A DNA stretch of 64,000 bases. Origin: an uncultured Aliarcobacter sp. (GTDB lineage: Bacteria > Campylobacterota > Campylobacteria > Campylobacterales > Arcobacteraceae). Positions 45,966 to 63,445 of this stretch are shown here, one piece after another. The position numbers were made by a program, and so were the translations under genes. Every line of letters begins with the position of its first letter. Position 1 is the first letter of the stretch. The stretch lies in NCBI GenBank assembly GCA_963664305.2, contig CAXXLV010000002.1:576001-640000 (forward strand), in the 5' to 3' direction. The notes below the pieces were generated by a model. That model made no database searches. It had not been told where the DNA came from and saw nothing but the letters and a program-made list of their open reading frames with translations.

Positions 45966-46508
45966 TTAATATAATCCAAATTTACCAGCAACTGAACTTT
46001 TATATAAAACTCTCATATTATCATCTTTATCAATAAATACTTTGAATAAAGCGTCTGATGCCTTTAAATCTTCTAAAGCTTCTTCAATATCTATTGGTTT
46101 ATAAGATGTTAATCTTACAGGAGTAATTTCGTCTTCAAATTTCTCTAATTCTAATGCAATTTTATCTTGAATTTCATTAGCTTCAACTTCAGATAATTTA
46201 GTAGCTTTATGAGCTGCAATTTTATCATGATGTCTTCTTAATACTTTAGATACTCTATCAACTGCAATATCAATTGCAGCGTATAAATCTTTATCTTTTT
46301 GTTTTACAACAATAGTATCTAAATGAGCAATATTTAAAGTGAATTCAAAAGAGAAAGCTTTTTTACCATGTTTTTCATCTTGTGAAATAATTGAGTTTAC
46401 AGAAATAATATCTAAATTATATTTTTTAAACACTTCTACTGAGCTATTAATGTAATCTTTGATCGCATCTGTTAATTCTATGTGTCTTCCTACAATACTT
46501 GTATTCAT
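45966..46508 (-). CDS. hpf: Ribosome hibernation promoting factor (long HPF/RaiA)
   Basis: GRHIELTDAIKDY, DLYAAID, C-terminal KP..EEA domain. Confidence 0.94.
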   Translation of the reverse strand: MNTSIVGRHIELTDAIKDYINSSVEVFKKYNLDIISVNSIISQDEKHGKKAFSFEFTLNIAHLDTIVVKQKDKDLYAAIDIAVDRVSKVLRRHHDKIAAHKATKLSEVEANEIQDKIALELEKFEDEITPVRLTSYKPIDIEEALEDLKASDALFKVFIDKDDNMRVLYKSSVAGKFGLY

Positions 46509-46657: not shown

Positions 46658-47509
46658 CTAAGCGTAATTAAATATAGAAGAATTTGAGTTTGAAAGGTTT
46701 TTAACGTAACTATTTAGTTCACTATTATTAGTTTGATTATTCATCATTTGCATAATATTTTTAAAGTTACTTAAATCTAAATTCTCTGAAGGATTTGAAC
46801 TATTAGATTTTATAGTATCAAGTAATAATTTTACAGTATCTTTTATAGTTGAATTATCAGCTGTTTCATTAGATATTCCTAATGCAGCATTTTTTTCTTC
46901 TTGAGATACAATACCATCTTTATTAGTATCAAGTTCATCATATTCTTCTTCATCAGTTGACGCTGCTGAACCACCACTTCCTCCACCTTTAGGTGGTGGC
47001 ATTGATGCTACAGATTCAGAAGAAGAGCTATTAGTTACTTGATTATATGCACTTGTTAACTCGTCTGTTGAAATTGAACCATCACTATCAGTATCTAATG
47101 CAGAAAACTCTTCATCACTTAAGATTGAAACTTCACTTGCACTAAGTAATGAATCACCATCACTATCATAACTTGACATTATCATAGAACTAAACTCATT
47201 TGCTTGTTGACTAGTTGGTGGTTCAGGCATTTGAAGGCCTAATTCAGATATTAAACTTTCAAATTCTTCTTTTGAAGGCATTTCTCCATCAAAAGAAGAT
47301 AATTTACTATCTATTGCACTTGCAATTTCATTTTGAGTAACTAGTCCATCACCATCACTATCAAGTGTAGAAAACTGTTCTTCACTAACACCTAATTCAT
47401 CAATACTCAAAGATGAATCAGAATTAGTATCACTATTTTTAACTATGTCTTTTGAAATATTACTTATAGGAGACATCATACCTATAGAACTATACGAAGA
47501 AATTGTCAT
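46658..47509 (-). CDS. Multi-EF-hand Ca2+-binding protein
   Basis: Loops DTNSDSSLSIDE, DSDGDGLVTQNE, DSDGDSLLSASE, DTDSDGSISTDE, DTNKDGIVSQEE; Ser-rich N-terminus, no Sec signal. Confidence 0.88.
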   Translation of the reverse strand: MTISSYSSIGMMSPISNISKDIVKNSDTNSDSSLSIDELGVSEEQFSTLDSDGDGLVTQNEIASAIDSKLSSFDGEMPSKEEFESLISELGLQMPEPPTSQQANEFSSMIMSSYDSDGDSLLSASEVSILSDEEFSALDTDSDGSISTDELTSAYNQVTNSSSSESVASMPPPKGGGSGGSAASTDEEEYDELDTNKDGIVSQEEKNAALGISNETADNSTIKDTVKLLLDTIKSNSSNPSENLDLSNFKNIMQMMNNQTNNSELNSYVKNLSNSNSSIFNYA

Positions 47510-47529
47510 ATTATCCTCCTTTTTTTAAA

Positions 47530-47561
47530 ATCCTATTCTTTTAAAGTAAATAATGGGTAAC
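47530..47561 (-). promoter_or_regulatory. Direct-repeat box plus -10 (EF-hand gene promoter)
   Basis: GTTAC-CCATTA-TTTAC-10 nt-TAGGAT. Confidence 0.72.
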
Positions 47562-47568
47562 AAAATTA

Positions 47569-48906
47569 TTAAGAATCACTAGAACCTTCAATAATTAATT
47601 TTAAAGATGAAAATGCTGTTTCCATTTGCGTAATCAATACCGTATATTCTGCAAATTGTGTAGACATCTGTTCATATTTTTCATCTAATTTATCAGAAGC
47701 TGTTTCATAATCTTCATTTAATGAGTCAATTTTGTCGTTTAATTTATCTTCATAAGTCGTAAAAAGTCCATCTAAGGAATCTAATGAATCTAAATAAGTT
47801 TTCAATTTTGTTCCAATACCTTCTTTTTCTGCATAACCAACAAATAATTCTTTTAAATCATCATAATTATCACTGACAGCTTCTGTTAATTCTGTAGAAT
47901 CAACATTTAAATAACCATCTGTATCAAAAGATATTCCATATTTAAACAGACTCTCTTCATTATCTAATCCATAACTTCCAAATAAAATCTCTTTTATACT
48001 ATTCATCATTGATTTTAAAGTACTTGAATCAGAAATTATTGCTGGGTCATCTTCATCACCCAAAATATAAGAATTTACTAAATCAACTAAATCATTGTAT
48101 TTATCAGCTACATCTTCAATTGTTGATACTAATGTACTAGTATCTCTTTCCATAGTAATTGAAGAATCACCAGTTGTAGTAGCAGTTATTATTAAACCAT
48201 TAGCCATTGTTACTTTATTTGATGAAACATCATAAGAAATACCATCAATTGTTGCTTGCATATTTTGTGCTGTTAAAACATGACTATCTTCTTCTTCAAA
48301 TCCTAAATCTATATCTGTTTGAGAAATAGAAATTGCATTTGATTCTCCAGTTTCAGCACTTTTTATTACAAGTCTATATGAATCATCACCAACTTGTTCT
48401 AAACTTGCTTCAAAATTTGAGTTATAACCCATTTCAGTTACCAAACTTTCATAAGTTTTTCCATCAGTTGAAAAATCATAACTTGTATCTCCAACAGTAA
48501 TAGTTATTGTTCCTGAATCCATTGTAGCTGTTGTATCTGAAATTGTATTTGATTGATATACATCTTTTTGTGCTAATTGACTAACACTAACACTAATTGT
48601 CCCCGGAGTTAATTTACTTGAATCAGTTGCATCAAAAGTTACAGAATCACCTGATGTTGTTGCACTTATTTCATCAAACACATTAGTTCCACTTGTATAT
48701 AAATCAAAATCGTCAACTAAATCAAGTAGTTCTAAAACCATAGTTTCAATTTCAGTTAATGCATCTAATTCAGCTTGTGTATCATCAATTTCATCAGTAA
48801 TTGGGTCTAGAATAGATGTACTTTCTGCTGTTTTTAATTTAGTAATTAAATCTGAACTTAAATCTACACTTCCTGAAGTTCCGAGTCCTAAAATTCCATC
48901 TGCCAT
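47569..48906 (-). CDS. fliD: Flagellar filament cap FliD homologue (acidic)
   Basis: LGLGTSG..LITKL..AE N-terminus, VSQLAQKD, RLVI.S..TG, AQ..IDGI, L...Y..M..QF C-terminus. Confidence 0.88.
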   Translation of the reverse strand: MADGILGLGTSGSVDLSSDLITKLKTAESTSILDPITDEIDDTQAELDALTEIETMVLELLDLVDDFDLYTSGTNVFDEISATTSGDSVTFDATDSSKLTPGTISVSVSQLAQKDVYQSNTISDTTATMDSGTITITVGDTSYDFSTDGKTYESLVTEMGYNSNFEASLEQVGDDSYRLVIKSAETGESNAISISQTDIDLGFEEEDSHVLTAQNMQATIDGISYDVSSNKVTMANGLIITATTTGDSSITMERDTSTLVSTIEDVADKYNDLVDLVNSYILGDEDDPAIISDSSTLKSMMNSIKEILFGSYGLDNEESLFKYGISFDTDGYLNVDSTELTEAVSDNYDDLKELFVGYAEKEGIGTKLKTYLDSLDSLDGLFTTYEDKLNDKIDSLNEDYETASDKLDEKYEQMSTQFAEYTVLITQMETAFSSLKLIIEGSSDS

Positions 48907-48916
48907 TTTATATCCT

Positions 48917-50515
48917 TTACATTGCTAATAGCGTTTGAAGCATTTCATCAACTGCAGTTATCACCTTTGCATTTGCTTCATATGCTGCTTGAAATTGAAG
49001 AAGATTTATCATCTCCTCATCTGAATCTACTTTTGTAAGATTGTTATATGTTGTTTCCAAAGAATTTACTATCGTATTTTGAGATTCTAATTTAAAGTTA
49101 TTATTTTCTACGTTTGAAGAAACTGTAACTAATAAGTTTTGATAAAACTCACTAAATGAAGTATTTGAAGTTGAACCAATAGTTAAATTTGTTGCCCACT
49201 GAATTTCAGATAGGTTTTCTAAGTCATTACTGGTTAAAGAGCTTACATTATCAGAAATAAAATTTAATGTATCAACATTTGAACCAGTAAATAGAGGCGT
49301 ATTACTACTTGAATTAACTAAATCAATTAATGCACTTGCAAATTCATCTAAACTATCTTTATATGAATATATATTTGAAGTTGAAGTTGTAAGCTCTTGG
49401 GTTATAGCCTTTAAAGAACCACTTGTTAGAGATAAACCATTATTATAAACAGCTAATGAAACATTATTTTCAGCTTCAACAGAAGTTGCACTTTTTGATA
49501 TTTCACTACTATTTACAGAAATAGCAATATCAAAAGCCCCCTCTTCTCCTTCAATATTTGATTTAATAATTAAATTATTACTTGAATCAAGATACGCGTT
49601 GTAATTTGAAAAATTTGAGTTTGAATTAATTGCATCAATAATTTGCTGTTTTAATTCATTTTCATCTGTTCCACTAACATTTGCACTTAATGTTAATGAT
49701 GTAGTATTATTTAAAGAAATAGTAATTTCATCTCCATCACTAAAGTTACTATCATCTAAAGAAGATGAAGTATAAATATCTTTTTGTGCAATATTTTCTT
49801 CATTTATACTTACTTCATGTAAATTTGTATCATTAAAAATTACATTTACTCCTGCAATTTTTAGGTTATAAGTATCACTATCTCTATTGATTTCTATATC
49901 AACATAATTTGATAACTCTTTTTCTAAAGCATCTCTTTTATCAAGTAAATCATTTGTTTCACCACTTTGTTGCATCTGTTTATTAAGATAGACTATCTGT
50001 TCTAAAATATCATTTACACTATCAACTTGATCTTGTAATTGTGTATTTAAACTCTCTAAGGTATCATCTAAATCACTGTTTAATGATTGTAAATTATTTA
50101 CTAATAATTGAGATTGAGTTGATAATTCATTTTGATAAATTAAGTTTGTAGGTTCTTCTCTTAATGATTCAATTGAATTAAAAAAGTTACTTAACGTTGT
50201 TGAAAAACCACTACTATCAGCTTCATCAAACATTATTTCAATACTACTTAATATAGTGTCTTCTTGTTCATAATATGAAGCTAAACTACTTTGCGCAACC
50301 AATTTATCATATAAATAACTATTTGTTGTTCTAGTAACTCCATCAAATGATACTCCATTCCCAATATTATCTTCTAAGCTATTTAATTCAGAAGTATTAA
50401 CAACTCTTTTTACATAACCATCTGTATTTTCATTTGCAATATTATTAGAAGTTACATCAACAGAATATTTTGAGGCATCAAGACCACTTTTTGCGATGTA
50501 TAAAGAATTTATCAT
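48917..50515 (-). CDS. flgK: Hook-associated protein FlgK homologue
   Basis: SLYIAKSGL..VTSNNIANENTDGY, NDLLDKRD, VDSDEEMINLLQFQAAYEANAKVI. Confidence 0.93.
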   Translation of the reverse strand: MINSLYIAKSGLDASKYSVDVTSNNIANENTDGYVKRVVNTSELNSLEDNIGNGVSFDGVTRTTNSYLYDKLVAQSSLASYYEQEDTILSSIEIMFDEADSSGFSTTLSNFFNSIESLREEPTNLIYQNELSTQSQLLVNNLQSLNSDLDDTLESLNTQLQDQVDSVNDILEQIVYLNKQMQQSGETNDLLDKRDALEKELSNYVDIEINRDSDTYNLKIAGVNVIFNDTNLHEVSINEENIAQKDIYTSSSLDDSNFSDGDEITISLNNTTSLTLSANVSGTDENELKQQIIDAINSNSNFSNYNAYLDSSNNLIIKSNIEGEEGAFDIAISVNSSEISKSATSVEAENNVSLAVYNNGLSLTSGSLKAITQELTTSTSNIYSYKDSLDEFASALIDLVNSSSNTPLFTGSNVDTLNFISDNVSSLTSNDLENLSEIQWATNLTIGSTSNTSFSEFYQNLLVTVSSNVENNNFKLESQNTIVNSLETTYNNLTKVDSDEEMINLLQFQAAYEANAKVITAVDEMLQTLLAM

Positions 50516-50524
50516 AATAAACTC

Positions 50525-50899
50525 CTAATAGATTCTTTTTACATCAACAAAATCAATAAAAGTTACAGTATCATCTAAAATATATTTTTTTTCTAAAGCA
50601 TCTATTCCTAGAACTTCATGACAAACTAAATATATTTTATTATCTTTTGTTGTTTGAATTGAACTAACATTAAATTGTCTAAAACCTCTTTCACCATTTC
50701 TTAATCTACCATCTTCAACAACTCTGTCAATAATATTTACAATATTTGTCATAGTTAATAAATTCATTGATTTTTGTAATTGAATTACCATTGATTCTAA
50801 ATTATCAAAATTTGTATTTTGATAATTATTCATAAAATAGCTATAACACTCAATTACTTGTGATTCTAGTCCTTTTATATCCATAATATTATTTTTCAT
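50525..50899 (-). CDS. Truncated FlgD-like (Tudor-type C-domain) protein
   Basis: Aligns by eye with the neighbouring FlgD C-region; ATG at 50899 behind an AAGGA RBS. Confidence 0.7.
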   Translation of the reverse strand: MKNNIMDIKGLESQVIECYSYFMNNYQNTNFDNLESMVIQLQKSMNLLTMTNIVNIIDRVVEDGRLRNGERGFRQFNVSSIQTTKDNKIYLVCHEVLGIDALEKKYILDDTVTFIDFVDVKRIY

Positions 50900-50912
50900 T
50901 TTCAATCCTTTT

Positions 50913-52046
50913 TTAACTTAAATATTTAACTAATGACAAGTTATTTACTTTGTTGATAGTTGAGTATAAAGCTGTATATGTATTTTCTAAAGCTTGAGAT
51001 TCAACAGCAAGTGCAGTTAAATCTGCTGCACCAACTGTTTCTTGTAAAATGCTAAAGTTTGTTAATTTTGTTTGAACAATTGATTCATAGTTTTCAATTG
51101 AAGCAGTTCTTATTCCAAGTTTTGCATGAGCTAAATTTACACTATCGTAAATATCTCCAATTTTATCAACGTAACTTGATAAAATAGAATCTGCTTCATC
51201 TTCAGTTATTGAATTACCATTAGAATCTTGTTGTTTTAACGCATTTATAACTTCATCTAAATCATCAAAAACTGAGTGTTTTGATGTTAAAGAAGTTGTT
51301 CCAGTGTTAGTAGTTGTAAAAGTTCCATCTCCATTATCTGTAATTGATAGAGCTGTTTGTGAACTATCCCCATTTAAATATAATCCATTATAAACACCAT
51401 CATTATCAGTATCTAATAATTTATATTGATTACCATCTTTATCTAGAATAATTTCATTTTCTTCAAATGTTAAATTTTCACCAGTTTGTGCTGTTTGATT
51501 TGTATAATATAGAAGCTCAATACCATTTAATCCTTGATTATTATAAGTATTTGTTTCAACATTAATTGTTTTATTGTCATTTGTTGATACATAAGAAATT
51601 CTTCCAGTTGTTTCATCTTTTACAAAAGGTTGTGTTGTTACACTATTTCCAGAAAAAAGGTATTGATTACTTGCACTACTATTTGCAAGCGAGTATATAT
51701 AATCTTTAATAGATTCTAATTCATTTGCAATAGTTTCTTTATTATCACTATCAGTTGTATCTGTAGATGCTTTTAAAATCAAAGATTGAGCTGATTCAAG
51801 AGATGTTTTTATACTTGAAACGGCTGTATCACTTGTCGTATTAAATGAATTAGATGATTGAATTCTATCTAAGATTGAACTATAAGAATTAACACTATTA
51901 TTTATTGATAATAATTGATTATACTTTGAAGAATCATCGCTACCATATTGTAAAGCTTCATTACTACTTAATCCATAAGTTACTTTTTCATTTCTACTAT
52001 TTAATAGACTTAAATTGTACATAATAGTATTTATTGAACTAACCAT
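50913..52046 (-). CDS. flgL: Hook-associated protein FlgL homologue
   Basis: Flagellin-type N-terminus with SDD, IANEL, LAN...YLFSG; C-terminal SLVKYL. Confidence 0.85.
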   Translation of the reverse strand: MVSSINTIMYNLSLLNSRNEKVTYGLSSNEALQYGSDDSSKYNQLLSINNSVNSYSSILDRIQSSNSFNTTSDTAVSSIKTSLESAQSLILKASTDTTDSDNKETIANELESIKDYIYSLANSSASNQYLFSGNSVTTQPFVKDETTGRISYVSTNDNKTINVETNTYNNQGLNGIELLYYTNQTAQTGENLTFEENEIILDKDGNQYKLLDTDNDGVYNGLYLNGDSSQTALSITDNGDGTFTTTNTGTTSLTSKHSVFDDLDEVINALKQQDSNGNSITEDEADSILSSYVDKIGDIYDSVNLAHAKLGIRTASIENYESIVQTKLTNFSILQETVGAADLTALAVESQALENTYTALYSTINKVNNLSLVKYLS

Positions 52047-52059
52047 AATAAACTCCTAA

Positions 52060-54030
52060 TTATCTTTTTAGACCTATTAATGTTGTTAGAATTTCATCTG
52101 CTGTGGTAATAGATTTTGCATTTGCTTCAAAAGCTCTTTGAAATACCATCAAATTAACTAAACTCTCACTCAAATCTGCTGTACTTAATTCTAAAGTTTC
52201 ACTTTCAACTGATACACCATTATTATTATTTACTGCATAGATTGGATTTCCACTCTCTTTAGTTGCAGCTAATAGATTATTTCCTATTGACTCTAATCCT
52301 ATATTGTTTGTAAATTGAGCAATTGCAACTTGTCCGATAACAAAATCAACTCCGTCTTGAGTCATAGTTATTATTCCACTATCATCAACTGAAAATTCTC
52401 CAAAAGATGAATCAGTTAATCCTAAAGAGCTTAGATTTAATTGTAAAGAAGACAAAGAAGTTGTTTGATTTACAGTTGAAATAATTTGCATAAATTCTGC
52501 ATTAGCACCACTATTTCCACTTGCATCTTGATTTCTTTCTTTTGTATAAACAGTTCCACCATCATCAAACTCAATTACACCCGAGAATTCTTCTCCAGGA
52601 TTTTTTGCTTCAATAACTAACATTCCATTTATTGTTTTTGCTTCAACTTGAGTTTGTAAATCTGCATCTGTATTTATTTTTGAAATCAAATCTTGAATAG
52701 CACTATTGTAATCTGTAAGAGTGTTATCACTTGTTACTGTAACACCATTTAAAGTAAAAGATATTGTATCTCCAACATCGAAACTTAAAATATTTCCATT
52801 ATCATCGCTAATAATATCTGCAGCTTCATATACATCTTGTTGAGTACCAGCTACTGCATCTCTTAGTGCTTCCATTGCACTTTTAACTGCTGCTTCACCA
52901 GTTCCTTCAACAGCATTTGTTAGAGTTGTTTTTGTTCCAACTTGTTCTGTTGTTCCTGAAACTTCAGCTAAATCACCAAGTGTAAATGATGTTCCTGGAA
53001 TTATTGAATCTATTTTTATTGCACCATTTAAAACATCAACATTTGAGGTACTTGCACTATTTGTTGAATCAACTGTATAAGCTTTTAATCCAGTAATTTT
53101 TGAAATTTCATCAGCTAAAGATTTATATGTTGCTACCCTACTTGCAAGTACATTATATTCTTCATCAGTTGTTACACCAGATGTTGTAATCCCTGCTGCA
53201 TCCATTTCTGCTTTAAATGAATCTGTTGCCGTAGTAGTTACATAATTTTGTGTAATTTTATTTCCATCAACATATACGTAAATTTGATCACTTTCACTAT
53301 CTAATAAACTTGTTCCTGTATTTGGATAATCTATTAGTGTTGTTTGAGCTATTGATGTACTACTTGACTCTTCTGGATTTTCAGCATAACTTTCTAAAGC
53401 TTTATTATAATTAGTAATTAATGCTTCAATATCAGAGATTTTTGCAGATTGTGTCTTTATTCCTGAACCTGAAAGTTCAGTTGAGTCACTTTTAGCACTG
53501 GTAGTATAATCAGACATTTTTGCAGCATAAGTTTGGATTTTATTTGAAAATTGAATTACTTGATTTCCTGCAATTTCACTAAAAGCATCAGTAAAATATG
53601 TTAGATTTGAATTTGTAGAAGTAATATCAGATGATGGATCAATTGTACTAATTGCCCATCCTTGAACTTCATTTCCAGAAGCATCTTGTAAAGTTCCATT
53701 TTCTCCCATTCTAAAATTTCCAGCTCTTGTATAGTAATTTTCAGATGTTCCACTAAAGTTTTTATTTGATACAACAAAAAAACCATCTCCATCAAGTGCT
53801 AAATCATAAGATGAACCCGTTAAATTTAAACTTCCTTGTGTATATTGTTTTTCTGCATTTGTAACAGATGAACCTTTTCCTATACTGTCTTGATACATCA
53901 AATCAGCAAAAGAAACTCTTGATGCTTTATATCCAACAGTATTTACGTTTGCAATATTATTTGACTCATTATCTAAAGCTGTTTGCTGAGAAGAAAGTCC
54001 TGCAATTCCAGTCCATAATGCACTAATCAT
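52060..54030 (-). CDS. flgE: Flagellar hook protein FlgE homologue
   Basis: SNNIANVNTVGYK, DLALDGDGFF, YTRAGNF, LELSTADLSESLVNLMVFQRAFEANAKSITT. Confidence 0.92.
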   Translation of the reverse strand: MISALWTGIAGLSSQQTALDNESNNIANVNTVGYKASRVSFADLMYQDSIGKGSSVTNAEKQYTQGSLNLTGSSYDLALDGDGFFVVSNKNFSGTSENYYTRAGNFRMGENGTLQDASGNEVQGWAISTIDPSSDITSTNSNLTYFTDAFSEIAGNQVIQFSNKIQTYAAKMSDYTTSAKSDSTELSGSGIKTQSAKISDIEALITNYNKALESYAENPEESSSTSIAQTTLIDYPNTGTSLLDSESDQIYVYVDGNKITQNYVTTTATDSFKAEMDAAGITTSGVTTDEEYNVLASRVATYKSLADEISKITGLKAYTVDSTNSASTSNVDVLNGAIKIDSIIPGTSFTLGDLAEVSGTTEQVGTKTTLTNAVEGTGEAAVKSAMEALRDAVAGTQQDVYEAADIISDDNGNILSFDVGDTISFTLNGVTVTSDNTLTDYNSAIQDLISKINTDADLQTQVEAKTINGMLVIEAKNPGEEFSGVIEFDDGGTVYTKERNQDASGNSGANAEFMQIISTVNQTTSLSSLQLNLSSLGLTDSSFGEFSVDDSGIITMTQDGVDFVIGQVAIAQFTNNIGLESIGNNLLAATKESGNPIYAVNNNNGVSVESETLELSTADLSESLVNLMVFQRAFEANAKSITTADEILTTLIGLKR

Positions 54031-54069
54031 TTTTAATCCTTTATAATTAATAGTGATTCCACTTATTTA

Positions 54070-54101
54070 ATCATAAAGGTTTAGGGTAAATTTAGGGTAT
54101 C
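54070..54101 (-). promoter_or_regulatory. Direct-repeat box plus -10 (flgE promoter)
   Basis: GATAC-CCTAAA-TTTAC-10 nt-TATGAT. Confidence 0.72.
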
Positions 54102-54122
54102 TAGAAAATAAATAGTTTTAAT

Positions 54123-54155
54123 AATTTACTAACCGTTGGTAACAGTTAGTAAATT
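54123..54155 (-). terminator. Hairpin at the flgD 3' end
   Basis: AATTTACTAAC...GTTAGTAAATT inverted repeat overlapping the stop codon. Confidence 0.55.
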
Positions 54156-54898
54156 TTGGTAATATTATTGTAAGAAATAGTTTTTGCTTCAGTATCATAA
54201 GCTGTTGCCGTATCTTCTGTATATGCAAGTGCTAAGTTACTTTGTGAAATAGATGAAGAACCATTACTAACAGAAACAACTAATTGATAATTTCCACTTG
54301 TATTTTGAACTACACTTGCAGTCATTCCTGATGTTTGCGAAATTTCTGTTGCTAATTCATCATAAGTTTTATTATAAGTTGAATATGTATAGCTATTTCC
54401 ATCACTATTTGTTAACGTAATTGAGCTATCTTCATTTGTTGAATCAACAACATCTGAACCACTCGATACTTCATCAAAATAATATACATCATAATAACCA
54501 GATAATTCATAAGCAGTTAAAGTAATTTCTCCATCATTCATGGATACTGAGGAAATTCTATATTGTTTATTATTACCTTCATCATCTGTATCCCCATTTT
54601 CTACGATATTTCCAATTAATGATGCAGAACTAGAAAGTGCTGATTGTTCAAAAGTTGATTGTAAAGCTTCCATTGCTTCTACTGTAGCTGTACTTGCTTC
54701 TAAATTTGATAATTGAAGTTGAGTATCAAGCATTGTTGAAGAATCAACTGCACTTGTTGGATCTTGAAGTTTTAATTGTGTTAGCATCAATGTAATAAAA
54801 TCAGAACTTTCTAATTGATCATTACTAACTGCTGAAGTGACTGTATTACCATAAGCATCTAATGATGAGCTTGTTGTTATCGAACTTGTAGTTGACAT
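54146..54898 (-). CDS. flgD: Hook capping protein FlgD homologue with FliD-like inserted domain
   Basis: DFITLMLTQLKLQDP...D...MLDTQLQLSNLE, ASLIG. Confidence 0.9.
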   Translation of the reverse strand: MSTTSSITTSSSLDAYGNTVTSAVSNDQLESSDFITLMLTQLKLQDPTSAVDSSTMLDTQLQLSNLEASTATVEAMEALQSTFEQSALSSSASLIGNIVENGDTDDEGNNKQYRISSVSMNDGEITLTAYELSGYYDVYYFDEVSSGSDVVDSTNEDSSITLTNSDGNSYTYSTYNKTYDELATEISQTSGMTASVVQNTSGNYQLVVSVSNGSSSISQSNLALAYTEDTATAYDTEAKTISYNNITKIY

Positions 54899-54928
54899 AT
54901 TATACTCCTTAATGGTATAGAATAAAAA

Positions 54929-54981
54929 ATTCTAACTATATGGAGTAAATATAGGGTATTAAAGAGTAAATAAAAGGTAAC
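54929..54981 (-). promoter_or_regulatory. Tandem direct-repeat boxes plus -10 (flgD promoter)
   Basis: GTTAC-CTTTTA-TTTAC-5 nt-AATAC-CCTATA-TTTAC-10 nt-TAGAAT. Confidence 0.75.
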
Positions 54982-56303
54982 TAGTTATTAATATTGATAT
55001 AAAAATGATGATAACCATCAATATATTTATATTCAAGTTTATAATTATGAATTTTGATAATATTATTTGAAATATAAAGCCCAAGCCCTAAACCACTTGT
55101 TGCAGTTTCATAGTCATGATTAAATGGTTTATAATATTCTTCAATATCTTTTGTTAGTTTTTCTCCTTTGTTAATTATTTCTATTGAATTTTCTTCAATG
55201 ATGATTTTAGGTTCTTCTTCTAAACTATATCTTATTGCATTATCAATTAAATTTTTTATAGCAATAGAAAATAGTTCAAAATCTGCATTAATTTTTAAAT
55301 CAGCTTTATCTTCTATTTCAATAGAATGTTCATCTAATAACAAAATATCAAAAGATTGATCAACTAATTCAATGATATGATATTCATTTTTATTTAGAGT
55401 AATTTTGCCAGAAGTTAATTCTTCTATTTTTGCAAACTCACTTAATAAATATTCTAGTCTTTGAAAGACCCTAATTAATATATATTTTCTTTCACTATCT
55501 TCATAAAAATCTGTAATTAATTTACCTTTTGTAATAGGTGTTTTTAATTCATGCATTATGTTTCTTAAAAAAAGATTTCTTGAATCTCTCAACTCTTTTA
55601 GCTGTTTTAATGCATTTGAAAATTCTCTTGTAAGTTCAGAAATTTCATCTTTCCCATTTATTTTTGTAGTGATTTTGAAGCTTCCTTTTGATAGATTAAT
55701 CATATCTTCTTTTAAACTAAGAAGAGGTCTTAATTTTTTTCTAATAAATAGGAAAAACCAAATTAATGAAATATTAACTACACTTAAAACAACTAACCAA
55801 AAATACTTAAACTCATTCTCTTTTAATTCATCAATTAATAATATTTCATGTGGCTTAGGTCTTAATTTAAAAAAAATAGGTTCTTCAAATCTTTCAAATA
55901 GTGGTTTTTCTGGTGGAGGAGGCATTTTTCTAAAATCAGGAAATTTAGGATTAAAATGTATATATTTAACACCATTTAACATATACGTATCAATTGGAGC
56001 TTCATCATCTATTTTTATTTTTTTATAATTTGATGTTAATAAATCTTCAAAACTTTTCTCAGATAATCTCATATCAAATACTGAGATTTTATCATTTATC
56101 TCTTGTAATGATGCATTCTTCATATTTAAATCTTCTACAATTCTAACTGTTGACATATATCTTTTTACTTCTAATAAAGAGTAAGTTTTACTATCTACAA
56201 TAAATTGTATAGTTATAATAATATTAATAATTAAGAAAATAGAAAAGAAAAAAAGTTTAATTTGAAAAAATATAGAATCTTTTTTATTGATTAACCAATT
56301 TAT
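54981..56303 (-). CDS. Two-component sensor histidine kinase (HAMP-HisKA-HATPase)
   Basis: HELKTP, NLIDNA, GLGLGL; frame is open upstream of ATG 56156 through a TM helix to ATA at 56303 (start uncertain). Confidence 0.9.
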   Translation of the reverse strand: MNWLINKKDSIFFQIKLFFFSIFLIINIIITIQFIVDSKTYSLLEVKRYMSTVRIVEDLNMKNASLQEINDKISVFDMRLSEKSFEDLLTSNYKKIKIDDEAPIDTYMLNGVKYIHFNPKFPDFRKMPPPPEKPLFERFEEPIFFKLRPKPHEILLIDELKENEFKYFWLVVLSVVNISLIWFFLFIRKKLRPLLSLKEDMINLSKGSFKITTKINGKDEISELTREFSNALKQLKELRDSRNLFLRNIMHELKTPITKGKLITDFYEDSERKYILIRVFQRLEYLLSEFAKIEELTSGKITLNKNEYHIIELVDQSFDILLLDEHSIEIEDKADLKINADFELFSIAIKNLIDNAIRYSLEEEPKIIIEENSIEIINKGEKLTKDIEEYYKPFNHDYETATSGLGLGLYISNNIIKIHNYKLEYKYIDGYHHFYININN

Positions 56304-56970
56304 AACCTACTCCTCTAATTGATAATATATATTTTGGTTTTTTTGTGTCTTCTTCTATTTTTGCTCTAACTCGACCAATTAAAACATCAATACTTTTATA
56401 TGAGCTTTCATATTTTATAGAATCAACATTAGAAAGTAATTCTTCTCTTGAAACAACAAAACCACCTTTTTGAATCATATATTGAAGTATAAAATACTCA
56501 GCATTTGTTAAATCAAGAAGTTCTTCATCTTTATATATTTCCATTTTAGATTCATCAAAAGTAAATATTTGTTTTTTATTTAAAGGAGATTCTTTTTCAA
56601 TAATTTGATGATTACATCTTTTTAAAATAGATTTTATTCTAAGTATTAATTCTTGTGTATCATATGGTTTTGGCATAAAATCATCAGCTCCATAAGAAAA
56701 ACAAGCAATTTTATCACCTAAATATGACCTTGCAGAAGAAATTATAATTGGTAAATCAAATTTTTGTCTAATTATTCTACAAACTTCTATGCCATCAATA
56801 TTTGGCAATGATAAATCTAATATTACTAAATCATATTTTTTTAAAGAAAGTGCAGATATTCCAAGCTCTGGAGTATCATAATTTGTAACAATTATGTTAT
56901 ATTGGCTTAGATATTCAGTTAAAATTCTAGCTAGTTCTGTATCATCTTCAATCATTAAAATATTAATCAA
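56284..56970 (-). CDS. OmpR/PhoB-family response regulator
   Basis: IEDD, DLSLP..DG, KPY, winged helix SIDVLIGRVRAKIE...RGVGY. Confidence 0.95.
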   Translation of the reverse strand: MINILMIEDDTELARILTEYLSQYNIIVTNYDTPELGISALSLKKYDLVILDLSLPNIDGIEVCRIIRQKFDLPIIISSARSYLGDKIACFSYGADDFMPKPYDTQELILRIKSILKRCNHQIIEKESPLNKKQIFTFDESKMEIYKDEELLDLTNAEYFILQYMIQKGGFVVSREELLSNVDSIKYESSYKSIDVLIGRVRAKIEEDTKKPKYILSIRGVGYKLVNQ

Positions 56971-56996
56971 ATTTTTACTCCTTATTTACTTTTTGA

Positions 56997-57028
56997 ATTA
57001 TAGTATATCAATGTAAATAAAAAGTAAC
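56997..57028 (-). promoter_or_regulatory. Direct-repeat box plus -10 (response regulator promoter)
   Basis: GTTAC-TTTTTA-TTTAC-10 nt-TATAAT. Confidence 0.75.
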
Positions 57029-57034
57029 AATTTG

Positions 57035-59269
57035 TTAAATCAAGATTTCTCGATTTCCTTTGGCATTTACTTCTGATAAAATTCCAGTTTGTTCTAACTG
57101 TTCAACAATTGTTGCTGCTCTATTGTATCCAATTCTAAGTCTTCTTTGAATATATGAGATTGAAGTTTTTTTCTCTGTTAAAACAATCTCTTTTGCATCT
57201 TCATATAATTCATCAAGTTCAGCTAAATCTGAATTATTTGAATTTCCACCACTAGATGAAGAAACTCCTGAGTTTCTATCTTTTATAAAGTTCATATCAT
57301 AAGAAACTTCTCTTTGGTCTTTTAAAAACTCTACAACTTTTTCAATTTCAGATTCTGTCGACCAAGGCGCATGAATTCTCACTAGTCCAGACATTCCAGG
57401 AGGTGTAAATAACATATCTCCCCTTCCTAAAAGAGATTCAGCACCCATTGAATCTAAGATGATTTTAGAATCTATTTTTTGCCCTACTTTGTATGATAAT
57501 CTACTTGGTAAATTTGCTTTAATAAGTCCTGTAACAACATCAACGGATGGTCTTTGAGTTGCAACTATTAAGTGAATTCCAGAGGCTCTTGCCATTTGTG
57601 CAAGCCTTGCAATTGAATATTCAACATCTTTTCCACTTGTCATCATTAAATCTGCTAACTCATCAATTACAACAACTATATAAGGCATTGTTTCATAACC
57701 TTCATTTTTAGCTTTTTCATTGTAATTCTCAATGTTTTTTGTTTTTGTTTTTGACATTAATGTATAACGTCTTTCCATCTCACTAACCATATTTGCTAGT
57801 GCATTTATTGCATCACTTGCTTTTGTAATAACTGGAGTTAAAAGATGTGGAATATCGTTATACATTGAAAACTCAAGCATTTTTGGATCAATCATCACTA
57901 ATCTTAAATTATCTGGTGAATTTTTATAAAGTAAAGATAAAATCATTGAATTTATTCCAACTGATTTTCCTGAACCCGTTGTTCCAGCAATTAAAAGATG
58001 TGGAAGTTTTTTTAAATCTGTGATAAATGGTTTACCAACAATATCTTTTCCTAAAATCATTGTAAGTGGTGAAATAGAATTTTGGAAAATTTCACTTTCT
58101 AACATCTCTTTTAGATATATTGTTTGTGTATCTTCATTTGGAACTTCAATTCCCACAACATCTTTTCCAGGAATTGGAGCTTGAATTCTTATTGTTTGAG
58201 CTTTTAAAGCCATTGCTAAATCATCTTGAAGACTCAAAATTTTTGAAACTTTTACATTTGGTGCTGGTTTAAACTCAAAAGTTGTTACAACTGGACCTGT
58301 ATAAGTTCTTACAACATCACCTTCAATTTTAAACATTGCAAGCTTATCTAATAAATCTCCAATTTTTTGGTCAATAAAAGATTCTGAAACTTTTGATTTA
58401 TTATCTTTTGGAGGATTTTGAAAAAATGATGTTGGAGGTAATTCAAAATTTTTTGGTTTTTCTGTTTTACCTACTTCAATTTCTGCTAAAAGCTTTTTAT
58501 TTTCTTCCAACTCATCTACAATAATCCCATGAGATTCTACAACTTGAATATCTTTTTCAAAATCATCACTATCAAATAAAGAAGATTCATAAATATTTGT
58601 ATCTTTTATTTCTTCTATATTCTCATATATTTCTGGAGTTATAGTTGCAATATTTGTAGTAGTTTCCTGTTTTATCTCTTTAACTTCAGGAATAGTTTTA
58701 GTAAGTTTTTTATCTATACTCTTTAAAACCTCTTTAGTTGTCTCTTCAACTCTTTTTTCTCTTCGTTTATTTTCAATTCTTTTAATATCTAAACTATTTT
58801 TTAATTTAATTTTATTCTTTAATTTTTTTAAATCTTCAATATCAAAATCTGAATTTTCAAATAAAACTAAAAATGAGATAATAAATCCAACTAAAACAAA
58901 GAAATAAAGTCCAGCACGTCCAATCACTGGGCTTAAAGAATCAACTAAAATATTTCCAATTTCTCCTCTTGAATAAGGATTTTCAATAACTAAAGCTTGG
59001 AAAATCAAACAAACAAAAAGTAATAAAAATACAACTAATATATTTAGTATTAAATCTTTTTGGTCAATATTTTTTTTGAAATTAATCATATAAAGTGGAA
59101 AAATCAATAGTAATAAATATATATAAGATAAATATCCAAAATATTTATGAGAAAAATCAGAAAATAAATATCCAACATTTCCCACAATATCTTTTCCACT
59201 TTCAAATGTAGAAAATTGAAAATAAACAATAATAAATAAAATAATTAGGGATATAATTTTCTTAGCTAT
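57035..59269 (-). CDS. ftsK: DNA translocase FtsK
   Basis: GTTGSGKS, IDPK, DELADLMM, ATQRPS, gamma domain QRRLRIGYNRAA; frame open to ATA at 59269 (ORF track start GTG 59185). Confidence 0.96.
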   Translation of the reverse strand: MAKKIISLIILFIIVYFQFSTFESGKDIVGNVGYLFSDFSHKYFGYLSYIYLLLLIFPLYMINFKKNIDQKDLILNILVVFLLLFVCLIFQALVIENPYSRGEIGNILVDSLSPVIGRAGLYFFVLVGFIISFLVLFENSDFDIEDLKKLKNKIKLKNSLDIKRIENKRREKRVEETTKEVLKSIDKKLTKTIPEVKEIKQETTTNIATITPEIYENIEEIKDTNIYESSLFDSDDFEKDIQVVESHGIIVDELEENKKLLAEIEVGKTEKPKNFELPPTSFFQNPPKDNKSKVSESFIDQKIGDLLDKLAMFKIEGDVVRTYTGPVVTTFEFKPAPNVKVSKILSLQDDLAMALKAQTIRIQAPIPGKDVVGIEVPNEDTQTIYLKEMLESEIFQNSISPLTMILGKDIVGKPFITDLKKLPHLLIAGTTGSGKSVGINSMILSLLYKNSPDNLRLVMIDPKMLEFSMYNDIPHLLTPVITKASDAINALANMVSEMERRYTLMSKTKTKNIENYNEKAKNEGYETMPYIVVVIDELADLMMTSGKDVEYSIARLAQMARASGIHLIVATQRPSVDVVTGLIKANLPSRLSYKVGQKIDSKIILDSMGAESLLGRGDMLFTPPGMSGLVRIHAPWSTESEIEKVVEFLKDQREVSYDMNFIKDRNSGVSSSSGGNSNNSDLAELDELYEDAKEIVLTEKKTSISYIQRRLRIGYNRAATIVEQLEQTGILSEVNAKGNREILI

Positions 59270-62641: not shown

Positions 62642-63445
62642 ATGGATGTAAATGCAATAAATAATAATTCTATATCAAGTTTAAACACTTCATCATCTTC
62701 TTCTTTACAACTAGAAAAAACCTCTCAAAGTGGTAGGATTAATAATTCTGAAAAAGATGCATTAAGTTTAAGTATCAGTGATTATAATAAACAAAGAGAT
62801 GAACTTTCTTTAAATATTCAATCATTTAATGATGGAATTGCAATATCAAAAATAGCTCAAAATGGAATATCAAAACAACAAGAATATTTAAGTAATGTTC
62901 AAGATAAACTTCAAAATATTAATAATTTACAAAATAAAAATGATATAAAACAAAGTATCAATGAAGATTTAAGAAATTTTAATCAAACTGCATATGAAAC
63001 AAAATATAAAAATGATAATTTATTAGTTCAAAATTATTATGATGACAAATCAACTATTGATATAAATACAAGTACTGGAAATTTTTCTGTTGAAAAAACA
63101 AATACTGCAACTTTCGCAAATGATATTTTTGAAACAGTAAATAATAGTGATTTAAATAATCCAGAAAACGTTTCAAATGCTTTAAATAAAGTTTCAACAG
63201 CATCATCTCAATTAAACGGATTATCTGAACAATTTTCACAATTTAGTAAACAATTAGAAGAAAAAGCATTAGAAAATATAAAAGAGCAAAATAATTTATA
63301 TAAAGAAAATCAAATGAATAAACCAAAAGATTTTGGTAGAGAATCAACTGATTTTTCAAAAGCAAATATTAATGCAAATGCAGGATATTTAGCAGCTTCT
63401 CAAGCAAATATCGTTCAAGCACAAAGTGTAAAAGTTATAGGTTAA
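62642..63445 (+). CDS. Short flagellin-like protein (FlaC-like)
   Basis: NDGIAISKIAQ (flagellin N-helix) and DFGRESTDFSKANINANAG..AASQAN (flagellin C-terminus); TATAAT and AAGGAG upstream. Confidence 0.75.
   Translation: MDVNAINNNSISSLNTSSSSSLQLEKTSQSGRINNSEKDALSLSISDYNKQRDELSLNIQSFNDGIAISKIAQNGISKQQEYLSNVQDKLQNINNLQNKNDIKQSINEDLRNFNQTAYETKYKNDNLLVQNYYDDKSTIDINTSTGNFSVEKTNTATFANDIFETVNNSDLNNPENVSNALNKVSTASSQLNGLSEQFSQFSKQLEEKALENIKEQNNLYKENQMNKPKDFGRESTDFSKANINANAGYLAASQANIVQAQSVKVIG

Follow-up and report, generated by a model that had tools for sequence, protein, structure and literature searches.

A putatively self-regulated duplicate set of flagellar hook-cap, hook, junction and filament-cap genes in an uncultured Aliarcobacter

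The 64,000-nucleotide stretch of DNA analyzed here (the window; contig CAXXLV010000002.1 of the uncultured Aliarcobacter sp. assembly GCA_963664305.2, positions 576,001 to 640,000) carries, between ftsK and hpf, nine minus-strand open reading frames (ORFs) that fill positions 46658-56970. In gene order, they encode a response regulator (RR), a sensor histidine kinase (HK), paralogues of the flagellar proteins FlgD, FlgE and FlgL, a small protein of 126 amino acids (aa) termed orf126, paralogues of FlgK and FliD, and an acidic protein with multiple EF-hands. With moderate confidence, this module is read as an alternative cassette of hook cap, hook, junction proteins and filament cap that is under two-component control, is interchangeable with the usual parts of the single flagellum of its host and comes with a co-regulated EF-hand protein. 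Gene identities were taken from Pfam and NCBIfam profile matches of the window ORFs; these confirm the gene list and coordinates given in an earlier note on this DNA, as well as its statement that flagellin, rod, ring, chaperone and export genes are missing, since neither profile library returned a flagellin, rod, ring, motor, export-gate or known chaperone family inside the block.

Five of the nine genes encode paralogues of axial flagellar proteins. The hook-cap paralogue FlgD (250 aa; 54146-54898, minus strand, as for all module genes) matches PF03963 at 37.5 bits against a cut-off of 27 and is 40% identical to the canonical FlgD of the same genome over residues 5-144. Its N-terminal part is FlgD-like and its C-terminal body has no match in Pfam; residues 120-241 resemble the head domain of FliD at 31-37% identity (blastp, E 6e-8 for FliD_c and 4e-7 for the module FliD). 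Beta-alpha-beta insert motifs like those of the module FlgD were also seen by eye in the module FlgE and FlgK. The hook paralogue FlgE (656 aa; 52060-54030) is a member of the FlgE/FlgEFG hook family, with 195.3 bits for TIGR03506 (cut-off 70.25) and scores above the cut-offs of PF00460, PF22692 and PF06429. It is 49.5% identical overall to the canonical FlgE, and the D0 termini of the pair (first 60 residues 78%, last 50 residues 84%) are more alike than the middle (48%), a pattern that would fit polymerization on the same rod. Of the two hook-filament junction paralogues, FlgL (377 aa; 50913-52046) matches Flagellin_N at 33.3 bits against 26.6, has TIGR02550 as its best NCBIfam match (111.9 bits, below the cut-off of 127.2) and is 35% identical over its full length to the FlgL encoded beside flhA, while FlgK (532 aa; 48917-50515) is assigned to the FlgK equivalog TIGR02492 (258.4 bits against 170.75) and is 36% identical to the canonical FlgK. 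The filament-cap paralogue FliD (445 aa; 47569-48906) carries both FliD_C (98.8 bits against 25.4) and FliD_N (45.8 against 24.8), as expected of a FliD, and is 43% identical to the canonical protein; its closest named database protein, at 95% identity, is annotated from Arcobacter ellisii, and the named matches are called only FliD ("flagellar filament capping protein FliD") or hook-associated protein 2.

The second, canonical set of flgD, flgE, flgK, flgL and fliD that the earlier note had advised looking for is present in the 2.78-Mb genome, divided between its two contigs (C1 and C2). The main flagellar cluster occupies approximately 234-266 kb of C1, with flgL, flgE, flgE2 and flgD lying within 236-259 kb, and reads flhA, flgL, fliI, flhB, fliR ... 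flgC, fliE, flhG, flhF, motB, motA ... flgE (708 aa), flgE2 (489 aa), flgD, fliN, fliH, fliG, fliF, flgB ... flgG. A second cluster at approximately 1.72 Mb of C2 holds fliQ ... fliL, flgH, flgK, fliD and fliS, and flagellin genes map to C1:561.8 kb, C1:563.2 kb and C2:406.9 kb. FlhA is represented by a single FHIPEP match genome-wide; the module proteins therefore have to rely on the host's existing export apparatus and basal body. With one FHIPEP match in the genome and no export, ring or motor families in the module, the block does not amount to a complete secondary flagellar system of the lateral or Flag-2 type.

Related genomes indicate how the two sets relate to one another. Three complete genomes (G088, G103 and G105) have a main cluster in which flhA adjoins fliI and unk109 adjoins fliN, such that flgL, flgE, flgE2 and flgD are gone with the rest in place; the only FlgE, FlgD, FliD and FlgL-type matches in these genomes are those of the module, and each genome has three flagellin genes. 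The earlier note had supposed that the module genes are not the sole copies of their kind, which holds for the present genome and fails for these three. Elsewhere, hybrid sets seem to occur: G084 has the module FliD and FlgL only, plus a 989-aa FlgE encoded elsewhere; G029, G183 and G037 yielded only a module-type FliD; and G171 yielded a canonical FliD and no canonical FlgE at E <= 1e-30. Given that either set can be lost and that apparent hybrids exist, the two sets would make one and the same organelle and share its flagellins; a single basal body is inferred to serve hooks of either type, and the module would be a hook/junction/cap set of ordinary function that can stand in for the canonical one. 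Exactly one FlhA was found in each of the ten module genomes tested, this one included, with the exception of G001, a complete genome that has neither FlhA nor a canonical FlgE. The module of G001 (L039, G001:C1:1547500-1565500) is decaying, as its dependence on a basal body would predict: orf126 is missing, and flgK and flgE are interrupted by foreign ORFs of 454, 132 and 187 aa.

The two sets differ consistently in composition. The module axial and EF-hand proteins contain 2.4-5.6% Lys plus Arg (K+R; 2.4% in FlgD) and 23-32% Ser plus Thr, lack Cys, and carry a net charge of -7 to -15.5 per 100 residues; the corresponding values for the canonical paralogues in the same genome are 6.1-10.5% K+R and -4 to -6 per 100 residues, in keeping with the initial description of the module proteins as rich in Asp, Glu, Ser and Thr and poor in Lys and Arg. 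RR, HK and orf126, at about 12-14% K+R, have the ordinary make-up of cytoplasmic or membrane proteins. Ranked by K+R among the 2109 ORFs of at least 150 aa in this genome, FlgD is 2nd, FlgK 8th, the EF-hand protein 10th, FliD 21st and FlgE 25th. The shift extends across genomes, with non-overlapping K+R ranges for module FlgE (3.6-5.9%, n=10) and canonical FlgE (6.4-8.9%, n=10). Among the same 2109 ORFs, the only other strongly acidic, Ser/Thr-rich ones with equally low K+R are giant ORFs of 577-3801 aa (G000, i.e., this genome: C2:1-11406, C2:1779845-1780411, C1:988723-995376, C2:866822-872767 and C1:204844-206577), presumably secreted surface proteins.

The two regulatory genes head the module. 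The RR (228 aa; 56284-56970) combines a receiver (Response_reg, 84.3 bits) with a winged-helix Trans_reg_C domain (70.2 bits) and is accordingly of the OmpR/PhoB family; its orthologues are 64-95% identical across all module loci examined, and its two closest paralogues in this genome are 50% and 47% identical to it. The HK contains HAMP, HisKA and HATPase_c domains and belongs to the ArsS family (NF038389, ArsS_fam_HK; 340.8 bits, cut-off 250), whose namesake in Helicobacter pylori serves in acid sensing. The kinase has two transmembrane segments and a periplasmic loop of approximately 100 aa, the first segment being absent from the ATG-started ORF (54981-56156). The frame remains open to about 56285, and some 43 upstream codons (about 56157-56290, minus strand) encode this segment and align with relatives. 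Because this upstream stretch contains no in-frame ATG, GTG or TTG, the HK start codon is uncertain; the stretch begins directly after a TAG, at a place where same-genus relatives have a Leu codon, and either a non-canonical start (ATA or ATC) or an impairment of the kinase in this strain would account for it.

Four promoter regions link these regulators to the remaining genes. In class II promoters of the PhoB/OmpR type, the place of the -35 element is taken by direct repeats that have an 11-bp period and stop approximately 10 nt short of the -10 element. Such a period was first noticed in TTAC half-sites upstream of flgD, and the window has four 15-nt boxes ([T/A]TAC-N7-TTAC), each followed by a spacer of exactly 10 nt and a TAnnnT hexamer. 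Ahead of the RR gene lies TTACTTTTTATTTAC (57013-57027) with TATAAT at 56997-57002; the flgD promoter (54929-54980) has ATACCCTATATTTAC (54945-54959) with TAGAAT and a further repeat from 54980; the flgE promoter (54070-54173) has ATACCCTAAATTTAC (54086-54100) with TATGAT and further repeats at 54152-54173, within the end of flgD; and the promoter of the EF-hand gene (47530-47560) has TTACCCATTATTTAC (47546-47560) with TAGGAT, all on the minus strand. The predicted transcription units are RR-HK, flgD, flgE-flgL-orf126-flgK-fliD and the EF-hand gene. When the window and 19 related loci were scanned with the regular expression [TA]TAC-N6/7-TTAC up to 150 nt upstream of each gene, the box was found before the RR gene in 17 of the 19 loci, before flgD in 14, before flgE in 13 and before the EF-hand gene in all 16 that have this gene, compared with 4 of 152 instances in total for ten other genes (lpxD, ftsK, HK, flgL, orf126, flgK, fliD, hpf, der and sulP). 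In the loci of genus g22, where the gene order is changed, the box stands before flgE, which is the first gene there, and is missing before flgD, which is not.

The box is likewise concentrated in the module at larger scales. Across the 64 kb of the window, the two-half-site expression matches the coding strand 13 times, and the eight matches in the module all lie in or near the regions upstream of the RR gene, flgD, flgE and the EF-hand gene. Genome-wide, the box followed by 9-11 nt and TAnnnT occurs 29 times, 11 of them intergenic, of which 4 are the module promoters; a version with four half-sites occurs twice, both times in the module, one of the two being the site from which the pattern came. 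A generic sigma-70 scan (94 promoter-like sites against 82 expected) was uninformative in such AT-rich DNA, as was a terminator scan. The four promoters are PhoB-like in layout and may be activator-dependent promoters of class II, with the adjacent RR as the presumed protein to bind the boxes and activate transcription. The resemblance to class II promoters of the pho-box type lies in the 11-bp repeats in the place of the -35 element and the distance of about 10 nt to the -10 element; the half-site, [T/A]TAC(C), is unlike the pho-box sequence, such that the likeness rests on layout. As the earlier note had supposed, the set is tied to its own sensor and regulator, in that the nine genes come and go as a block and four promoters have a box in common.

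Under the favored reading, FlgD, FlgE, FlgK, FlgL and FliD would be exported via the single resident flagellar type III apparatus and assembled on the resident rod, and would carry the shared flagellins of the one polar flagellum. The OmpR-family RR and its membrane kinase would set expression through the PhoB-like class II promoters, the RR-HK unit being autoregulated via its own box. In genomes with both sets, a signal would then lead to the assembly of hook, junction and cap parts whose surfaces differ chemically, being more acidic, with approximately half the Lys and Arg and with more Ser and Thr. Several points weigh against this interpretation. The regular expression was derived from the flgD site of the window, which matches by construction, and the paralogous RRs of this genome could bind similar boxes. 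The unclear HK start codon means that the sensor could be impaired in this genome. Several of the genomes with mixed sets are fragmented (160 contigs in G171, 60 in G183 and 130 in G037). Finally, in two loci where the module is the sole copy (L092 and L094), the flgE box has been lost, a plain TATAAT promoter-like site standing in its place, and the RR box is degenerate; control by the two-component system is hence not uniform. The same two loci encode a FlgL of 454-455 aa and lack orf126.

These sole-copy loci also bear on an alternative in which the two-component system serves as an assembly checkpoint and not as an environmental switch. It would replace, in this family, the FlgSR/sigma-54 step of other Campylobacterota and activate hook-stage genes upon completion of the basal body, with the module as the second or, in some species, the only hook-stage set. 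In Campylobacter and Helicobacter, the FlgS/FlgR two-component system controls the sigma-54-dependent hook and rod genes, FlgR being an NtrC-type sigma-54 activator and FlgS a cytoplasmic kinase. The module resembles that arrangement in placing hook-stage flgD, flgE and flgK of the same bacterial class under the presumed control of a two-component system, and in both L092 and L094 the only flgD retains a perfect box, a 10-nt spacer and TATAAT, from which it follows that hook-cap synthesis there should depend on the RR. Nevertheless, 156 of the 184 genomes of the family lack the module and its RR-HK pair, most of them having flagellar genes, and the system therefore cannot be a general checkpoint. 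The kinase, with its two transmembrane segments and periplasmic loop, is a membrane protein of the ArsS family, unlike cytoplasmic FlgS; the regulator is of the OmpR/PhoB type; and the promoters consist of a -10 hexamer and a direct-repeat box, no GG-N10-GC (sigma-54) or sigma-28-like motif having been found in the five module intergenic regions, which sets the block apart from a FlgSR-sigma-54 regulon. Furthermore, the module is a duplicate cassette and not the only set, and this genome encodes a protein with a sigma-54 DNA-binding domain (G000:C1:749514-749972; 165.6 bits, 429-aa frame). The checkpoint alternative is, on balance, improbable. With regard to sigma-54, Arcobacter is stated to have lost RpoN (PMC9321776).

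A different emphasis is suggested by the EF-hand protein (283 aa; 46658-47509), which could be the main product of the module, exported as a Ca2+-binding effector or matrix factor through a conduit that the axial paralogues adapt. The protein matches EF-hand_7 (PF13499) at 63.9 bits against 30, shows no hydrophobic N-terminal signal in its sequence, and resembles the axial proteins in composition (K+R 4.2%, rank 10 of 2109). Its AlphaFold2 model (mean predicted local distance difference test score, pLDDT, 66), confident for the EF-hand domains only, shows two domains with an EF-hand pair each, a linker that is disordered and a helical C-terminus of low confidence, with no axial-type D0 helices of any confidence. 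Orthologues have in common an N-terminal EF-hand pair, a conserved MPSKEEF segment and a Pro/Gly/Ser linker, followed by a second EF-hand pair and a lone EF-hand (both missing in g22) and a conserved C-terminus ending in Y-A. Given the axial-like composition, the lack of a Sec signal and the common box, the protein is probably a co-exported substrate of the flagellar type III secretion system (T3SS). Non-structural substrates of this system in Campylobacter include FlaC and the Cia/Fed proteins, which the EF-hand protein resembles in being small, acidic, without a Sec signal and encoded with flagellar genes.

The presence of the box in all 16 loci that have the EF-hand gene and the partial match to the XopAW family of T3SS Ca-binding effectors (NF041410), whose EF-hand repeats those of the module protein resemble, would also favor export as the principal function. 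The score for this family, 77.1 bits, lies below the cut-off of 120 and does not make the protein a member. In addition, the gene was found in 12 of the 16 loci around orf126 homologues and in two of three further loci; it was not found in L022, L024, L029 and L094, and the loci L026, L030 and L032 end at contig ends. As the axial set persists in the four loci that lack the gene, we give little credence to a module built chiefly around this protein.

Similarly slight is the chance that the block is a neutral redundancy, i.e., an old duplicate that is drifting to loss with no special role beside a two-component system that regulates something else. Its patchy distribution (28 of 184 genomes), the decayed copy in G001 and the dispensability of either set are what such drift would produce. 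Module-type FlgD (full-length, E <= 3e-58) occurs in 28 of the 184 genomes of the family and in 6 of its 22 genera: 14 genomes of g1, the present one included, 9 of 25 in g10, 1 of 2 in g3, 1 of 6 in g19, 1 of 11 in g21 and 2 of 5 in g22, with fragments in G037 and G106. The census is bimodal, all other matches being N-terminal-only matches to canonical FlgD (E 1e-20 to 1e-38), and at E <= 1e-40 module FlgD was absent from the 377 genomes of 13 other families in a class-wide sample and also from the 23 other genomes of the family in that sample. Against neutrality, the ORFs are intact in six genera, the boxes are conserved at four promoters and almost confined to the module genome-wide in their full architecture, and the shift in composition is conserved and non-overlapping; moreover, the RR-HK pair was never seen at the ftsK/hpf locus without the rest of the module.

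Synteny gives the same impression of a unit. In the same-genus genomes G010 and G002, ftsK (57035-59185 in the window, minus strand) is directly followed by hpf (45966-46508, minus strand; both flanks from the ORF listing and Pfam), and the nine genes can hence be regarded as a single insertion or deletion. Of the 16 loci around orf126 homologues, 14 keep the order ilvN-lpxD-ftsK-[RR-HK-flgD-flgE-flgL-orf126-flgK-fliD-(EF-hand)]-hpf-der-sulP, loci cut by contig ends showing the same order as far as they reach. The two g22 loci (L031 and L032) have the block elsewhere and rearranged, fliD-orf126-flgK-flgD-flgL-flgE being divergent from RR-HK-EF-hand, with all nine genes present. The comparison across relatives called for in the earlier note thus found a block kept as a unit even after rearrangement, and the companion comparison of isoelectric point and phylogeny separated the module from the canonical set both in composition and in the position of its FlgE. 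The tree of the FlgE family (92 rows, made up of 62 cluster representatives of at least 470 aa and the sequences of this genome and its relatives, five FlgE2 rows cut by locus ends having been dropped) was computed with LG+G4 in a "quick" mode, in which starred branches are less trustworthy than in a careful run. The module FlgEs form one clade (11 rows; Shimodaira-Hasegawa-like approximate likelihood ratio test, SH-aLRT, 96) inside the FlgE radiation that holds the canonical FlgEs of the family, and this clade groups with the canonical FlgE of g22 (SH-aLRT 93, unstarred branch); FlgE2 is a separate clade (SH-aLRT 100). Since the module clade nests among the FlgEs of the family, the module looks like an old duplication within the family and not an import from afar.

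The flagellin-less, FliD-capped hook-like appendage on the host basal body that the earlier note had proposed, perhaps adhesive or Ca2+-binding, draws on the want of a flagellin gene in the block, on a very acidic composition otherwise matched only by giant ORFs and on the box shared with the EF-hand gene, and yet it has a very slim chance of being correct and is not borne out, seeing that FlgK, FlgL and FliD serve to join and cap a flagellin filament, that the three complete genomes with the module set only have three flagellin genes each, and that the retention of hybrids implies parts that interoperate with canonical ones.

The remaining member of the cassette, orf126 (50525-50905), has no Pfam or NCBIfam family. 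Its AlphaFold2 model (pLDDT 80) consists of two helices forming a hairpin, followed by a four-stranded Tudor-like barrel of the FlgD type; the N-terminal export/D0 region of FlgD is absent, and the composition is that of a cytoplasmic protein (K+R 11.9%, 2 Cys). The best VIA-align rows of the model are FlgD hook-cap chains (7bhq_A, Z 6.9, root-mean-square deviation 1.7 over 62 residues; 3c12_A, Z 6.2), with further FlgD chains at Z 5.3 (7eh9_B) and 4.9 (4zzf_A), values that are middling by the scale of the tool (<8) and closely followed by those of unrelated BAH and Tudor domains. A Foldseek search of the PDB with the model gave nothing at E <= 0.001, the top rows being BAH domains. The sequence has weak matches (E 1e-4 to 1e-8) to canonical and module FlgD genes of relatives. 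The earlier designation of this ORF as FlgD-like is thus modestly supported by both kinds of match and unaccompanied by a family match. A complex prediction for canonical FlgD and orf126 scored 0.02-0.03 against a mark of 0.32, which is not evidence either way.

The distribution of orf126 hints at its role. It is present in 21 module genomes (the g22 matches, at E 1e-10 to 1e-11, lie inside module loci), including all 20 in which both FliD types were found, the canonical FliD of one being a fragment of 66 aa, and one (G183) of the seven genomes with a module-type FliD only. Because the genomes are related, this association should be taken as a pointer without statistical weight; it suggests that orf126 has a role only when two sets coexist. 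A scan of genome contigs with a pattern from the orf126 alignment found 10 loci, most of them titled Aliarcobacter, Halarcobacter, Arcobacter or Arcobacteraceae metagenome-assembled genomes, one titled "bacterium" and one "Candidatus Paceibacteria bacterium." In G022, contigs C8 and C11 hold identical copies of orf126, flgD and fliD, either a real duplication or an assembly artefact. A fuller version of the cassette interpretation, which is possible if rather doubtful in all its parts, would have an external cue (possibly Ca2+ or another ion) prompt, by way of the sensor pair, a swap of the hook cap, hook, junction and filament cap to the acidic, Lys/Arg-poor isoforms together with export of the multi-EF-hand protein via the same channel, the non-exportable orf126 acting as a discriminator against mixing of the two cap and hook sets.

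Set beside known systems, the module would be a variant on flagellar parts that come in alternative versions, on dual systems and on hook genes under two-component control. Alternative flagellins are already well known, as are second flagellar systems that are complete. Within one flagellar system, the Campylobacterota FlgE2, here encoded in tandem with the canonical flgE, is likewise an extra hook-family gene, although it is a single gene of the main cluster with a clade of its own, whereas the module FlgE groups with the FlgEs themselves and is encoded together with cap and junction proteins and with a regulator. The lateral flagella of Vibrio and Aeromonas are part of dual flagellar systems. 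Such systems, which also include fla1/fla2 of Rhodobacter sphaeroides (PMC6180460), resemble the module in that one genome holds an additional set of flagellar structural genes under separate regulation, but they are complete, with their own export gate, rings and motor, whereas the module holds axial distal genes only and the genome has one FlhA. In Azospirillum brasilense, the RpoE6 cluster flgK-flgL-fliD-fliS-fliC2 (PMC12826043) is likewise a partial distal flagellar gene cluster with a dedicated regulator and modifies the one polar flagellum; that cluster has an ECF (extracytoplasmic function) sigma/anti-sigma pair, a minor flagellin, FliS, and no hook or hook cap, whereas the module encodes both of these along with a two-component system and an EF-hand protein, and lacks a flagellin. 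No published description of a self-regulated hook-cap/hook/junction/cap duplicate that shares the basal body and flagellins was found in the portions covered of a literature that includes PMC9321776, 10.1101/775932, PMC6477937, PMC6690266 and PMC10336517; the supplements of PMC9321776 in text form, so far as covered, do not mention flgE, fliD, flgK or EF-hand, and some others of its supplements lie outside this coverage and may show the arrangement.

The family offers a natural experiment, in that it contains species with the canonical set only, with both sets, with the module only and with what seem to be hybrids, and it consequently bears on the interchangeability of axial parts and on the matching of hooks to rods and filaments. 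The four near-identical promoters would provide a ready-made and directly testable regulon for the RR; the usual regulators are reported to be missing from the flagellar gene hierarchy of this lineage. The conserved halving of Lys and Arg points to selection on the exposed surface, for which proteases, ions or glycosylation come into consideration. If the fuller version of the cassette interpretation is true, the switching of distal parts would be a programmed flagellar change beyond flagellin switching.

Lastly, several observations concern the surroundings of the module. A 267-aa flagellin-like ORF at 62642-63445 of the window (plus strand), with a Flagellin_N score of 25 bits, under the cut-off of 26.6, resembles short secreted flagellin homologues; it was considered as a module-specific flagellin and rejected, as it also adjoins ilvB in G010 and G002, which lack the module, and hence stands outside the latter. 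In some g10 genomes (L092, L093 and L023), a resistance-nodulation-division (RND) efflux operon (OEP, HlyD-like and AcrB, the last at 474 bits) lies between the EF-hand gene and hpf. Contigs from a wastewater RNA library (X11 and X13, one sample) are 90-99% alike to parts of fliD, flgE, the RR gene and the fliD/EF-hand junction; DNA carry-over is possible, contigs of RNA libraries give no level of transcription, and two other matching runs are probably DNA.

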